Source: Escherichia coli (GTDB lineage: Bacteria; Pseudomonadota; Gammaproteobacteria; Enterobacterales; Enterobacteriaceae). From it: 64,000 nt of DNA. A program made the translations under genes and the position numbers. Positions 3,317 to 63,921 of this stretch are shown here, piece after piece. The notes below the pieces were generated by a model that did not search any database, was not told the DNA's origin, and saw nothing but the letters and a program-made list of their open reading frames with translations. The stretch is taken from the NCBI RefSeq assembly GCF_003790525.1, contig NZ_CP033635.1; one strand, 5' to 3'. The first letter of the stretch is position 1; every line of letters begins with the position of its first letter.

Positions 3317-3391
3317 TGGGGTATCGCCAAGCGGTAAGGCACCGGATTCTGATTCCGGCATTCCGAGGTTCGAATCCTCGTACCCCAGCCA
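3317..3391 (+). tRNA. glnV: tRNA-Gln (anticodon CTG)
   Basis: 75-nt TGGGGTATCGCCAAGCGGTAAGGCACCGGATTCTGATTCCGG...CCCCAGCCA; anticodon is wild-type CTG (not the supE amber-suppressor CTA). Confidence 0.96.
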
Positions 3392-3428: not shown

Positions 3429-3503
3429 TGGGGTATCGCCAAGCGGTAAGGCACCGGATTCTGATTCCGGCATTCCGAGGTTCGAATCCTCGTACCCCAG
3501 CCA
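3429..3503 (+). tRNA. glnX: tRNA-Gln (anticodon CTG), second copy
   Basis: same 75-nt sequence as 3317-3391. Confidence 0.96.
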
Positions 3504-3718: not shown

Positions 3719-4894
3719 CTACAACCCTAACGCATATTTCAGCGCCTGACGTTTCAACACGCCAGCACGCTCCGCCGCCATTAATCCGAGATTACGCATA
3801 AAACGCAGTGGTGGCAGATTATTGCTGAATCCGGCATAAAACAGATCCATACCGCTTTGCATAATGAAGTTATCCGCCATGCGCCGCATCTGGTAACGCT
3901 TGAGCACAGGATAACTGGCCCACGCTTCGCCGTAGCTGCGGGCGTTCACCAGAACGTCAATCAGGGCATCGACATCACGATAACCAAGATTCACCCCCTG
4001 CCCCGCCAGCGGATGGATGGTATGCGCGGCATCTCCCACCAGTGCCAATCCCGGCTGAACATACTGCAACGCATGGCGACGTGTCAGCGGAAACGCCCCC
4101 GCGGCAAGCGGTGTCACGTAACCCAGACGCGACGGGAAATGCTTCGCGATTTCCGCCTGTAGCTGCGCCATATTCATATTCTGCAACTGGCGAATGCGCG
4201 CCGGAGAGTCATACCACACCAGCGATGCCCAGTTATCAAACAACGGCAGAAACGCACGCGGTCCGTCCGGGGTAAATTGCTGCCAGGTGCTATCGCCGGG
4301 ATCGTTCTCGCACTGTACGCTAATCAACATACACGACTGTGCATACTGCCAGGCATGAACGCCAATTCCCGCCATCTGCCGCACCTGCGAATTTGCGCCG
4401 TCGGCACCAATCACCAGCTTCGCGCGGATCGTTTCACCGCCCTTCAGTTCCAGCTCCTGAAGATCATTATGGCGATGCAGCGCAATCAGCGAGCCTGGCA
4501 CACGTAACGTTACTTTCGGATGCGCTTCCAGCGCCTGCCACAGCGCCTGTTGCAGGACAGTGTTTTCCACCATGTAGCCAAGCAACGGTAGCTTAAGTTC
4601 AGCGGCGTCAAACACCACATGCGCCGTTTCCCACTCCCACGTTTCCAGTCTGCGGTAAGGATGGCAACGCATAGCCTGTACTGCATCCCAGACCCCTAAC
4701 CCTTTAAGCAATGATACCGAAGCCGCACTAATCGCCGAGATCCGCACGTCCGGCTGGCTGTCAGCGACAAACGGTGCAGGTTGGGCATGTTCGATAACCA
4801 TTACCGAAAATCCGTGCTGAGCCAGTCCCAGCGCCAGTGCGCCGCCGACCATTCCTCCGCCGACAATGGCAATTTCCGTTGGTTGATTTGTCAT
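3719..4894 (-). CDS. ubiF: 2-octaprenyl-3-methyl-6-methoxy-1,4-benzoquinol hydroxylase (FAD monooxygenase), 391 aa
   Basis: N-terminal Rossmann motif IAIVGGGMVGGALALGL; ORF may start two codons upstream at 4900 (ATGACCATG). Confidence 0.93.
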   Translation of the reverse strand: MTNQPTEIAIVGGGMVGGALALGLAQHGFSVMVIEHAQPAPFVADSQPDVRISAISAASVSLLKGLGVWDAVQAMRCHPYRRLETWEWETAHVVFDAAELKLPLLGYMVENTVLQQALWQALEAHPKVTLRVPGSLIALHRHNDLQELELKGGETIRAKLVIGADGANSQVRQMAGIGVHAWQYAQSCMLISVQCENDPGDSTWQQFTPDGPRAFLPLFDNWASLVWYDSPARIRQLQNMNMAQLQAEIAKHFPSRLGYVTPLAAGAFPLTRRHALQYVQPGLALVGDAAHTIHPLAGQGVNLGYRDVDALIDVLVNARSYGEAWASYPVLKRYQMRRMADNFIMQSGMDLFYAGFSNNLPPLRFMRNLGLMAAERAGVLKRQALKYALGL

Positions 4895-5039
4895 GGTCAA
4901 TCATCCTGTTAGCAATATGCTTTAAGTTTACAGGATTTTTACCCCCAAGGGCTGATAACGCTCATACTGGTCACAACGGCAGCAAAGCATTACACTATGC
5001 GCCCTGCATTCCTGGCTACTATTTCGCAAGAGCAAGTCG

Positions 5040-6464
5040 ATGACCAAAAAACTCCATATTAAAACCTGGGGCTGTCAGATGAACGAGTACGATTCATCGA
5101 AGATGGCCGATCTGCTGGATGCCACCCACGGCTATCAACTGACCGATGTGGCGGAAGAAGCGGATGTGCTGCTGCTGAACACCTGCTCAATCCGCGAGAA
5201 GGCTCAGGAAAAAGTCTTCCATCAGTTGGGTCGCTGGAAACTGTTAAAAGAGAAGAATCCAGACCTGATTATCGGCGTCGGCGGCTGCGTGGCATCGCAA
5301 GAAGGCGAGCACATTCGCCAGCGCGCCCACTATGTCGATATTATTTTTGGGCCGCAAACGCTGCACCGTCTGCCGGAGATGATCAACTCCGTGCGCGGCG
5401 ACCGCAGCCCGGTTGTAGATATCAGCTTCCCGGAAATCGAGAAGTTTGACCGTCTGCCGGAACCGCGCGCCGAAGGGCCGACCGCGTTTGTCTCCATCAT
5501 GGAAGGCTGCAATAAATATTGCACCTACTGCGTAGTGCCTTACACCCGTGGTGAAGAGGTAAGCCGTCCGTCCGACGATATTCTGTTTGAAATTGCCCAG
5601 CTTGCGGCTCAGGGCGTGCGTGAAGTCAACCTGCTCGGTCAGAACGTGAACGCCTGGCGTGGTGAGAACTACGACGGCACCACCGGATCGTTTGCCGACC
5701 TGCTGCGTCTGGTTGCGGCGATCGACGGGATCGATCGTATTCGCTTTACCACCAGCCATCCGATCGAATTCACCGACGATATCATCGAAGTGTACCGCGA
5801 CACGCCGGAGCTGGTGAGTTTCCTGCATCTGCCGGTACAGAGCGGTTCCGATCGCATTCTGAACCTGATGGGACGTACCCATACAGCGCTGGAGTACAAA
5901 GCGATCATCCGTAAACTGCGTGCGGCGCGTCCGGATATTCAGATCAGTTCTGACTTCATCGTTGGCTTCCCTGGCGAAACCACCGAAGACTTCGAGAAAA
6001 CGATGAAGCTGATTGCCGACGTCAATTTCGACATGAGCTACAGCTTTATCTTCTCTGCACGTCCGGGTACGCCAGCCGCCGATATGGTTGATGATGTTCC
6101 GGAAGAAGAGAAGAAGCAGCGTCTGTATATTCTGCAAGAACGTATTAATCAGCAAGCGATGGCATGGAGCCGCCGGATGCTCGGCACCACCCAGCGTATT
6201 CTGGTAGAAGGTACATCGCGTAAGAGCATCATGGAGCTTTCCGGTCGCACTGAAAATAACCGCGTGGTCAACTTTGAAGGCACGCCAGATATGATCGGTA
6301 AATTCGTCGATGTAGAAATTACCGACGTCTACCCGAACTCTCTGCGCGGTAAAGTGGTGCGTACTGAAGATGAAATGGGTCTGCGCGTGGCAGAAACGCC
6401 GGAATCGGTGATTGCCCGTACCCGCAAAGAAAACGACCTTGGCGTGGGTTATTATCAGCCGTAA
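5040..6464 (+). CDS. miaB: tRNA-i6A37 methylthiotransferase (radical SAM), 474 aa
   Basis: N-terminus [19 protein letters not shown] plus radical-SAM CNKYCTYC motif. Confidence 0.95.
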
Positions 6465-41736: not shown

Positions 41737-42297
41737 TCAAAACTGAAAGCGCATCCAGGCAAAGTACACATTGCCATTGTTGTAGGTACCCGGAATGTAG
41801 GTCATCTGAAACGTCGCGGGGCCATACCCCACAGAGGCCAATGGCAGTAGAACCGGGAGAGGGATGTAATTCCAGTTATCGCGTGCCGTTACGCCAGCGG
41901 TGAATCCCAGGCCTAAATGAAAATTTTCATCTGCCAGCGGTCGCCAGGTACTTTCCCATCCGTATCCGGCAATCGGTTCCCATTTGTTCCACGAGTCCTT
42001 AAATGCCATGGCATACAGGCCATGCCAGTTTCCTTTTTCGTCCCAACGCGACTGACCAAAACCGCCACCCCACGGTCGCTCGTTATAGCGATCGGTTTTT
42101 TCTTTGTCATAGGCAAAACGCGCATGCCAGGTGATGGCAGGAATATATAAATCATAATGTTCTGGCTGTTGCCAGGTTTGTGCAATATTTTCTCTAAACG
42201 TTGTCATCCACTCATCAGCGTTAGCAAAAACTTTACCAACACTGATTAACTGAATAAAAACAAAGAAAAATATAGTGACATATTTACTCACGTTCAT
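41737..42297 (-). CDS. pagP: lipid A palmitoyltransferase PagP (outer-membrane beta-barrel), 186 aa
   Basis: matches recalled PagP incl. signal peptide. Confidence 0.95.
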
Positions 42298-46997: not shown

Positions 46998-48056
46998 ATG
47001 TTCGGCAATGATATTTTCACCCGTGTAAAACGTTCAGAAAATAAAAAAATGGCGGAAATCGCCCAATTCCTGCATGAAAATGATTTGAGCGTTGACACCA
47101 CAGTCGAAGTATTTATTACCGTAACCCGCGATGAAAAGCTTATCGCGTGCGGTGGAATTGCCGGAAATATTATTAAATGCGTTGCTATCAGTGAATCCGT
47201 TCGCGGTGAAGGACTGACGCTGACATTAGCCACTGAATTGATAAACCTCGCCTATGAGCGGCACAGCACGCATCTGTTTATTTATACCAAAACCGAATAC
47301 GAGGCGCTGTTCCGCCAGTGCGGTTTTTCCACGCTGACCAGTGTACCCGGCGTGATGGTGCTGATGGAAAACAGCGCCACGCGACTGAAACGCTATGCCG
47401 AATCGCTGAAAAAATTTCGTCATCCAGGGAACAAGATTGGCTGCATTGTGATGAACGCCAATCCCTTTACGAATGGTCACCGTTATCTGATTCAACAGGC
47501 TGCAGCACAGTGCGACTGGTTGCATCTGTTTTTAGTTAAAGAAGATTCTTCACGCTTTCCCTATGAAGACCGGCTGGATCTGGTGTTAAAAGGCACCGCC
47601 GATATTCCACGCCTGACTGTGCATCGCGGCTCCGAATACATCATCTCCCGCGCTACGTTCCCTTGCTACTTCATTAAAGAACAGAGCGTCATTAACCATT
47701 GTTACACCGAAATTGATCTGAAGATTTTCCGTCAGTACCTCGCTCCCGCGCTGGGTGTAACTCACCGCTTTGTCGGTACTGAACCCTTTTGTCGTGTTAC
47801 CGCCCAGTACAACCAGGATATGCGCTACTGGCTGGAAACGCCGACTATCTCCGCACCGCCCATCGAACTGGTTGAAATTGAGCGGCTGCGTTACCAGGAG
47901 ATGCCGATATCCGCTTCCCGGGTACGTCAACTGCTGGCGAAAAACGATCTCACGGCTATCGCGCCGCTGGTCCCTGCAGTCACGCTGCATTATTTGCAGA
48001 ACCTGCTTGAGCACTCCCGCCAGGACGCGGCAGCTCGTCAAAAGACCCCCGCATGA
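46998..48056 (+). CDS. citC: [citrate (pro-3S)-lyase] ligase, 352 aa
   Basis: start MFGNDIFTRV at ATG 46998; ORF-track start 46911 is an upstream extension. Confidence 0.93.
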   Translation: MFGNDIFTRVKRSENKKMAEIAQFLHENDLSVDTTVEVFITVTRDEKLIACGGIAGNIIKCVAISESVRGEGLTLTLATELINLAYERHSTHLFIYTKTEYEALFRQCGFSTLTSVPGVMVLMENSATRLKRYAESLKKFRHPGNKIGCIVMNANPFTNGHRYLIQQAAAQCDWLHLFLVKEDSSRFPYEDRLDLVLKGTADIPRLTVHRGSEYIISRATFPCYFIKEQSVINHCYTEIDLKIFRQYLAPALGVTHRFVGTEPFCRVTAQYNQDMRYWLETPTISAPPIELVEIERLRYQEMPISASRVRQLLAKNDLTAIAPLVPAVTLHYLQNLLEHSRQDAAARQKTPA

Positions 48057-62050: not shown

Positions 62051-62652
62051 CGCAGGATTTAACCCAATTTCTCGCCAGCTTGCCGGAAGATGATCGCATC
62101 AAAGCGATTAATGAAATCCGCATGGCGATCCATCAGGTTAGCCCCTTTCGTGAAGAGCCAGTGGATTGCGTTCTGTGGGTTAAAAACAGCCAACTTATGC
62201 CTAATGATTACAACCCAAACAACGTGGCACCACCCGAAAAAAAACTGCTGAAAAAATCCATTGAAATAGATGGTTTTACCCAACCCATTGTGGTCACGCA
62301 TACGGATAAAAATGCCCTGGAAATCGTGGATGGTTTTCACCGCCATGAAATTGGTAAAGGCTCATCATCGTTAAAATTACGCTTAAAAGGTTATTTGCCG
62401 GTGACCTGTCTGGAAGGTACGCGTAATCAACGCATCGCCGCAACTATTCGTCATAATCGCGCTCGTGGACGTCACCAAATCACTGCCATGTCAGAAATCG
62501 TCCGAGAACTCAGCCAGTTGGGATGGGACGATAATAAAATTGGCAAAGAGCTGGGAATGGACAGCGACGAAGTGTTGCGCCTGAAGCAAATTAACGGCCT
62601 GCAAGAGTTGTTTGCCGACCGTCAATTTTCCCGCGCCTGGACGGTTAAATAA
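62023..62652 (+). CDS. ybdM: ParB-like nuclease (ParB/Srx) domain protein, 209 aa
   Basis: DGFHRHE motif (DGxHR class); 28-nt overlap with ybdN. Confidence 0.9.
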   Translation: MGDTMQQRLTQDLTQFLASLPEDDRIKAINEIRMAIHQVSPFREEPVDCVLWVKNSQLMPNDYNPNNVAPPEKKLLKKSIEIDGFTQPIVVTHTDKNALEIVDGFHRHEIGKGSSSLKLRLKGYLPVTCLEGTRNQRIAATIRHNRARGRHQITAMSEIVRELSQLGWDDNKIGKELGMDSDEVLRLKQINGLQELFADRQFSRAWTVK

Positions 62653-63813
62653 CTAAAGCTGGCGCAGGCGTTCTGCTGCTGCCAGCAACGTCGATTCCTT
62701 CTTGGCAAAACAGAGACGAATCAGTTTATGTGGGAAGGGATCGGCGCAAAACACCGACAGCGGAATCGCCGCTACGCCGTGCTCCCGCGTCAGCCACTGG
62801 CAAAACTCAACATCATCCAGCGTAGATACGGCGCTGTAATCCACCAGCAAAAAGTATGTACCTTCGCACGGTAAAATCTCCAGCCGACTTTCATTTAAGG
62901 CATTCACCAGAATATCGCGCTTCTGGCGATAAAAGTCCGGTAACGCAAGATAATGCTCAGGTTCTGCACGTAGCATATCGGCAAGCGCCAACTGTGCCGG
63001 GGTATTCACCGAAAAGGTCAGATACTGATGCACTTTGCGGATCTCGGCGCTGATGGGCGCAGGTGCAACGCAATACCCCACTTTCCAGCCGGTCATATGA
63101 TAGGTCTTGCCAAACGATGACACCGCCACCGCTCGCTCACACAATTGCGGATGCGCCAGCACGCTGGCATGGCCCTGTTGTGAAAAATTGATGTGCTCGT
63201 AGACTTCATCGCTAATGACAAAAATCTCGTGCCCGGCAATCGCCTGCCACAGAGCGGAGAAATCAGCCTACTGCCAGACAGTTGCACTGGGGTTATGCGG
63301 GGTGTTGAGGATCACCAGTCGGGTGCGCTCGCTTAACAATGCGGCAAATTCCTGCCAGTCCACGCGAAAATGCGGTGGTTGCAGTGCAATACGTTTCACT
63401 ATTCCCCCCGAAAGCGCGATGGCGGGCGCGTAACTGTCATAGCTGGGATCAAAGCAAATCACTTCATCGCCATTGCGAACCAATGCAGTAATCGCTGCGT
63501 ATAGCGCTTCCGTCGCCCCTGCTGTTACGGTGATATCGCTGTCGGCATCTGGTTGATAGCCATACAGCCGTTCCGTTTTCTGAGCAATCGCCTCGCGTAA
63601 TGCCTGCACGCCGGTCATGGGTGCGTATTGGTTTGCCCCCTGGGCAACGTGGTACGCCAGCCGTTCCTGCAAATAGCGCGGACCATCAAAATCAGGAAAG
63701 CCTTGCGACAGGTTAATCGCCTGGTGTTGCTGCGCCAGTGCACTCATCTGGGTGAAAATAGTGGTGCCAAGTTGTGGAAGTTTGCTTTGTGGAATCAGAG
63801 GGTTATTTGTCAT
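62653..63813 (-). pseudogene. ybdL: methionine aminotransferase (PLP fold type I) interrupted by an in-frame TAG after codon 181
   Basis: N-terminal ORF 63268-63813 ends ...SATVWQ at a TAG (plus-strand CTA at 63268-63270); reading continues in the same frame ADFSALWQAIAGHEIF... into the C-terminal ORF 62653-63162 that carries the PLP-lysine motif SFGKTY. Confidence 0.85.
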
Positions 63814-63921
63814 TTTTATTGTGCCTGATGAAGTTGCGTGTTGAAGGCACTATAACACGATGCTAGTATTTGGCAATCAAGACGTTTAGATGTCTAAATA
63901 AAACAATAAGGACAACACAAC

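Follow-up and report, generated by a model that had tools for sequence, protein, structure and literature searches.

In class I aminotransferases of fold type I, an Asp contacts the pyridine nitrogen of PLP, a Tyr contacts its O3' and a Lys forms the Schiff base with PLP, while substrate-binding residues are provided by the C-terminal small domain. YbdL of Escherichia coli, for which a crystal structure of 386 aa is available (PDB 1U08), is a fold type I enzyme of the kynurenine/glutamine aminotransferase subgroup. It has been described as a PLP aminotransferase that prefers methionine, histidine and phenylalanine keto-acid pairs, and also as a kynurenine aminotransferase (Dolzan et al. 2004, as cited in PMC9436414 and PMC11214133). 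Deletion of ybdL left growth unaffected, also when Met, His or Phe was the amine donor supplied to a glutamate auxotroph, since other transaminases substitute for the missing enzyme (PMC9436414). The ybdL gene at the end of the 64,000-nt stretch of E. coli DNA analysed here (the window) is collinear with 1U08 once codon 182 is restored to Gln, whereas the frame as it stands is cut after 181 codons by an amber codon. The reading proposed here, with a probability of about 0.85, is that this Q182* is a genuine, recent and strain-private nonsense pseudogene allele, which came from a spontaneous mutation, inactivates the gene and is nearly neutral.

The ybdL frame and its amber codon

Codon 182 of ybdL is a TAG on the minus strand (63268-63270; CTA on the plus strand). 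Translation of 63813..62650 (minus strand) in one frame gives 386 codons with codon 182 as the sole internal stop and the natural stop at the end. The ORF listing contains this frame in two pieces, a 181-aa ORF (63268..63813, minus strand) with the C-terminus NPSATVWQ and a 169-aa ORF (62653..63162, minus strand). The whole frame, ybdL for methionine-oxo-acid transaminase (62653..63813, minus strand; 386 codons plus the natural stop), has 99.9% identity (one mismatch) to ybdL of 24 complete genomes, and the Gln182-restored protein aligns from 1-386 to 1-386 with 1U08 (E = 9.6e-261). Because the restored protein matches 1U08 end to end, the two pieces are one gene split by one stop and not two chance ORFs. 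A sequence-only reading of the window had described the frame as continuous across one TAG, which the 386-codon translation with its one internal stop bears out. The stretches that it had quoted for the sequence after the TAG and for the PLP-lysine region are both present, as the single-frame translation reads ADFSALWQAIAGHEIFVISDEVYEH downstream of codon 182 and later SFGKTYHMTGWKVGY, the second of these being included in the 169-aa ORF.

The amber codon (63268..63270, minus strand) replaces an ancestral CAG (Gln) through a C to T change at sense nt 544 (G to A at plus-strand position 63270). The N-terminal fragment (codons 1-181; 63271..63813, minus strand) keeps Asn174 and is without Asp202, Tyr205, Lys236 and the C-terminal small domain, the PLP roles of these residues being taken from family knowledge. 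On the other side of the stop, codons 183-386 and the natural stop (62653..63267, minus strand) form a presumably untranslated remnant, which is in frame and otherwise undamaged, with zero further differences from ybdL of strain SMS-3-5. This remnant includes the AAG codon of Lys236 (63106..63108, minus strand) within the SFGK motif, the putative Schiff-base lysine by homology with class I aminotransferases.

The gene order around the window ybdL is the same as in strains SMS-3-5, 2D and KFu014, with hcxA divergent upstream and ybdM convergent downstream. Precomputed PF00155 matches are recorded for both products of split ybdL genes on related contigs. As to membership in the ybdL family, the window copy has full-length collinear homology and does not have an uninterrupted ORF with Asp202, Tyr205 and Lys236; judging from its translation, the locus is the ybdL gene but is predicted to encode no functional class I PLP aminotransferase. 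The in-frame TAG is premature, with CAG at this position in 24 of the 24 nearest complete genomes, and by RefSeq conventions the window ybdL is a pseudogene with an internal stop.

Near relatives and the reality of the mutation

The window ybdL matches 5,419 of the 5,426 complete RefSeq E. coli genomes and is identical in none of them. The best 24 complete genomes, including SMS-3-5, 2D, KFu014 and XDL, have exactly one ybdL mismatch each, and all 24 genes are annotated as an intact 'methionine-oxo-acid transaminase'. Base by base, this mismatch is sense nt 544, a C in the relatives (CAG, Gln182) and a T in the window. The earlier proposal of a wild-type CAG and a single C-to-T change was thus correct, as SMS-3-5, 2D and KFu014 differ from the window ybdL only at nt 544. 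Alignment to reference ybdL genes agrees with it, those of the 24 nearest genomes being annotated as intact and having CAG at codon 182.

Over the whole 64-kb window, there are four substitutions and no indels relative to 2D (12896, 24394, 47217 and 63270) and four substitutions relative to KFu014 (13331, 24394, 47217 and 63270). The comparison with SMS-3-5 covers ~48.5 kb without an indel; 15452-42224 has 0 mismatches, and the only two in 42221-64000 are at 47217 and 63270. The source strain is, as far as these comparisons indicate, a very close relative of SMS-3-5, whose clade we take to be phylogroup F. 2D and KFu014 have one private SNP each in the same 64 kb, and the two private SNPs of the window therefore fit the real divergence of the clade.

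The only private difference of the window from SMS-3-5, 2D and KFu014 other than the amber codon is a G to A change at 47217 (plus strand), which gives Ala74Thr at codon 74 of citC ([citrate (pro-3S)-lyase] ligase). Both private SNPs of the window are G:C to A:T and both are protein-altering. Additionally, pagP of SMS-3-5 is split by an IS5-like ISKpn26 (21704-22907 of L072, from NC_010498.1) and that of the window is uninterrupted (~42221-42224); the BLAST pieces at this junction overlap by 4 bp, consistent with a target-site duplication.

The T at 63270 could also be a sequencing or assembly consensus error, in which case the strain would truly have CAG and an intact ybdL; the sequence-only reading had named both a genuine mutation and an error. 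In favour of an error, the allele is unique among ~5,400 complete genomes, the window has just one other private difference from SMS-3-5, and no independent assembly of the same lineage with the TAG was found. Exact TAG-centred 61-mers, in the background of the window and in two others, had 0 matches at 100% among 4,066-5,207 comparable complete genomes, and a second assembly of the window's lineage carrying the TAG was not found, the two same-lineage contigs (L073 and L074) ending at nt 543 and being uninformative. A TAG 24-mer had 0 matches in the GTDB species-representative genomes and 0 matches in the JGI metagenome contigs, a collection without power for this search, in which the wild-type 24-mer has only 7 matches.

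However, the window has zero indels, which argues against a noisy consensus, and its 2-4 substitutions relative to the three sister genomes over 48-64 kb are of the same order as their own private SNPs. Errors in long-read consensus tend to cluster at homopolymers and at Dam/Dcm motifs; the TAG site is a transition outside a homopolymer, it is not in a GATC and not in a Dcm CCWGG. Furthermore, some private nonsense SNPs are to be expected in a clone at this distance from its relatives. A consensus error is unlikely on these grounds, and the T at 63270 is, from the comparison with the sister genomes, very probably real in the organism. The allele is private to the strain.

Recurrence of Q182* and other natural ybdL loss alleles

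When the exact 181-aa product was looked up in a large assembly collection, Q182* was also found on other contigs, which are L005 (ENA metagenome, ~70x coverage), L015 (72 kb) and L016 (52 kb) from Logan, L025 (45 kb) and L045 (55 kb). In each case the TAG sits on an otherwise intact ybdL; L045 is one base from the K-12 ybdL allele, and L015 is otherwise one mismatch from PM4-5 and E21845/O/A over 3.6 kb. The ybdL alleles of these contigs differ from that of the window by 45-61 substitutions, and the SNPs in the 45 nt flanking the TAG on each side are not the same. With no more than 3-6 nt between their ybdL sequences, L015, L016 and L045 were conservatively counted as one origin. The number of distinct haplotype backgrounds with Q182* is at least four and may be six. 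As the ybdL backgrounds around the TAG differ, Q182* arose independently at least four times. A single mutagenised strain as the source of the ~72.5-kb contigs with W180*, Q181* and Q182* was considered and rejected, their 24-56 substitutions of mixed type per 3.6 kb corresponding to natural diversity.

The same look-up returned many contigs without a stop. Among 30 contigs with 181-aa products, 26 merely end at nt 543-545 of ybdL (window 63269-63271; within L006-L034, L073 and L074), and these include a 23.7-kb contig and a 4.2-kb contig identical to the window's lineage; two contigs that are 100% identical to this lineage are among those ending at nt 543. An assembly break at the mutated base, from C/T polymorphism within the sample or a structural junction, was considered for these ends and rejected, as the prefix controls turned out to be invalid. 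The control products (176, 179, 180, 182-184 and 186 aa) are absent from the clustered protein collection. Products truncated at a contig end are mostly missing from that collection but are present in the gene-position index, and absence from the clustered collection does not mean that no contig ends there. The 183-aa prefix, for instance, is absent from the clustered collection and yet is found on 5 contigs by the gene-position index. Likewise, C-terminal partial products starting at residue 172 or 183 were not found in the clustered collection, which omits contig-end products. A modest excess of contig ends at nt 543 remains, in Logan and ENA and with several assemblers. It could come from the behaviour of assembly graphs in mixed samples, where a common SNP at nt 513 and k = 31 add up to 543; however, this would not account for the non-Logan assemblies.

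Other codons of ybdL have been inactivated as well. A lineage with W180* (TGA) is represented by at least 15 contigs; Q181*, and a +1 frameshift in the C-run that precedes codon 176, were seen in two backgrounds; Q154* is in the complete genome HCM-25C-3, where it is annotated 'internal stop'; and contigs with Q87* and with Q145* were confirmed. Also, ybdL is 'frameshifted' in VE-T10 and N53 and has a large internal deletion in Eco_23-3571, and frameshift products of 65, 133, 137 and 239 aa are recorded, some of them on megabase-scale records. Records of ybdL loss alleles include L043, L050, L048, L044 and L047 from Logan, L038 (NZ_AP038238.1), L042 (NZ_CM176496.1), L088 and L096. In a set of 60 complete genomes taken at even steps along the similarity ranking, at least 4 have a disrupted gene, through an internal stop in one, frameshifts in two and a deletion in one; as 17 of the 60 were inspected and two of these were picked for their odd alignment lengths, this is a minimum and does not give a rate. 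Contig counts are not counts of nonsense alleles, since for the 86-aa and 144-aa products a true stop was present in only 1 of 10 contigs shown. A search of the literature for ybdL pseudogenes found nothing specific. In L035 (NZ_CP122620.1, ETEC4090), an in-frame tandem duplication of 24 nt is found right after codon 182 (nt ~547-594), with ADFAALWQ present twice; YbdL of ETEC4090 is thereby 394 aa long and is annotated as intact by RefSeq.

In lacI, the classical amber hot spots are CAG to TAG changes at CCAGG Dcm sites. The base change in Q182* is the same, but codon 182 is without a Dcm site, its context being TGGCAG-C-AGGCT, that is GCAGG and not CCAGG. Deamination of 5-methylcytosine at a Dcm site therefore does not explain Q182*, and a Dcm hot spot was rejected for this codon. 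A templated mutation from a quasi-palindrome was likewise rejected, the stem having only 4 bp by eye. Two CAG codons of ybdL do lie in Dcm CCAGG, those of Q31 (~63721-63723, minus strand) and Q58 (~63640-63642, minus strand). Products that end before them (30 aa and 57 aa) are found on 120 and 274 contigs respectively, counts that include contig-end fragments, and also include annotated Shigella sonnei proteins and megabase-scale records. Q31 and Q58 are candidate 5-methylcytosine amber hot spots.

The recurrence of Q182* could also mean that the mutation is real and favoured, because C544 is a mutational hot spot or because loss of YbdL is adaptive. The number of backgrounds with Q182* is in line with this, W180* and Q181* being found in one lineage each in the same searches, and so are the TAG alleles that sit on otherwise intact genes, such as L015 and L045. 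However, the ascertainment was biased, as three 181-aa products were searched for specifically, and the one unbiased look-up, through the 199-aa downstream ORF, gave a ratio of lineages of 3 (Q182*) : 1 (Q181*) : 1 (W180*), which is not significant. E. coli assemblies number in the hundreds of thousands, so that any transition that is tolerated would be expected to recur, and truncations at most other stop-capable codons of ybdL are recorded too. The codon also has the wrong context for Dcm, as described above. A favoured mutation is accordingly regarded as quite improbable. That C544 in particular is a preferred target, with the same amber codon in at least four lineages through high mutability or a repeated advantage of YbdL loss, for example in the gut, is regarded as very improbable; were it true, the loss of ybdL would be adaptive and parallel across lineages. 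For the gene to serve as even a modest example of parallel gene loss, codon 182 would have to be hit more often than expected. No complete genome has Q182*, which indicates that the allele does not rise to high frequency.

Consequences and comparison with known ybdL alleles

For the preferred reading, a genuine and private nonsense allele, the proposed course begins with a G:C to A:T transition (nt 544, plus-strand 63270), which would have turned the Gln182 CAG into an amber codon in an SMS-3-5-like strain of presumed phylogroup F; translation would then end after residue 181. In the restored sequence Asn174 stands in HNPS, Asp202 and Tyr205 in SDEVY and Lys236 in SFGK, with Lys244 following, and the codon of Lys236 is 54 codons downstream of the stop. 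The sequence-only reading had placed the stop upstream of the PLP lysine and predicted a ~181-aa fragment without it; both points stand, codon 182 preceding Lys236 in SFGK. Since Asp202, Tyr205, Lys236 and the C-terminal domain are all 3' of the stop, the 181-aa product, by the positions of these residues, cannot be an active enzyme, and the methionine, aromatic and kynurenine aminotransferase activity of YbdL would be lost in the strain. The first in-frame candidate for a restart is a GTG at 63162, which would give the 169-aa piece without half of the large domain. Besides 1U08, the nearest solved homologues of the restored YbdL include N-succinyldiaminopimelate aminotransferase, kynurenine aminotransferases I and III and glutamine aminotransferase.

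A full-length YbdL would still be made if the TAG were decoded, either through an amber suppressor tRNA encoded outside the window or through programmed read-through of high efficiency. Suppression of the supE44 type (glnV CUG to CUA) would decode this TAG as Gln; in the window, however, the tRNA-Gln(CUG) genes keep their ctg anticodons. ARAGORN found four tRNA-Gln genes there, with the anticodons ttg, ttg, ctg and ctg, all wild type, and a tRNA-Gln with a CUA anticodon is not among the four tRNA-Gln genes of the 64-kb window. The two tRNA-Gln(CUG) genes, of the glnV/glnX type (3317-3391 and 3429-3503, plus strand), are identical to those of 2D and KFu014, and the window has no supE allele, as the earlier reading of these two genes had claimed. 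The window is only part of the genome, and a near-cognate tRNA-Gln reads UAG at low frequency, inserting the ancestral Gln, both of which leave some room for decoding. To our knowledge, E. coli has no pyrrolysine system and strong amber suppressors are rare in its natural isolates. The base after the TAG is a G. Every close relative has CAG, and as the TAG is not conserved among them, nothing suggests a maintained recoding signal; programmed recoding or read-through was rejected, the stop being absent from the close relatives and from the complete genomes tested by exact 61-mers. Decoding of the TAG into full-length enzyme is thus extremely improbable. Any activity left in the strain would have to come from the low level at which tRNA-Gln naturally misreads UAG, putting the wild-type residue back, and traces of wild-type YbdL from this misreading are conceivable.

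The candidate promoter of ybdL (63849..63876, minus strand) is sigma-70-like by consensus match, with TTGCCA, a 16-nt spacer and TG-TATAGT (TGnTATAGT), and it is unchanged relative to the relatives. A new internal promoter created by TAGGCT was considered and rejected, as a consensus scan finds none there. The gene is monocistronic and ends back to back with the convergent ybdM, and no polarity on any downstream gene is therefore expected.

As YbdL is metabolically redundant, the allele would be neutral or nearly so, which fits both the knockout data and the frequent natural pseudogenes. Repeated inactivation of ybdL in natural E. coli and Shigella is consistent with the lack of a knockout phenotype and indicates that the gene is dispensable in many niches. 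The appropriate annotation of ybdL in this strain is a single internal-stop pseudogene, not two aminotransferase genes, and YbdL should be left out of metabolic reconstructions of the strain; other transaminases back up its activities.

Compared with the other Q182* alleles, the window copy differs in its background, that of the SMS-3-5-like clade, and is found in no complete RefSeq genome or other assembly of its lineage. Compared with the other natural ybdL loss alleles of E. coli and Shigella, which RefSeq labels 'internal stop' or 'frameshifted', it affects the same gene with the same consequence. Q182* is an ordinary internal-stop pseudogene allele of a well-characterised dispensable gene, and alleles of this kind are already known.
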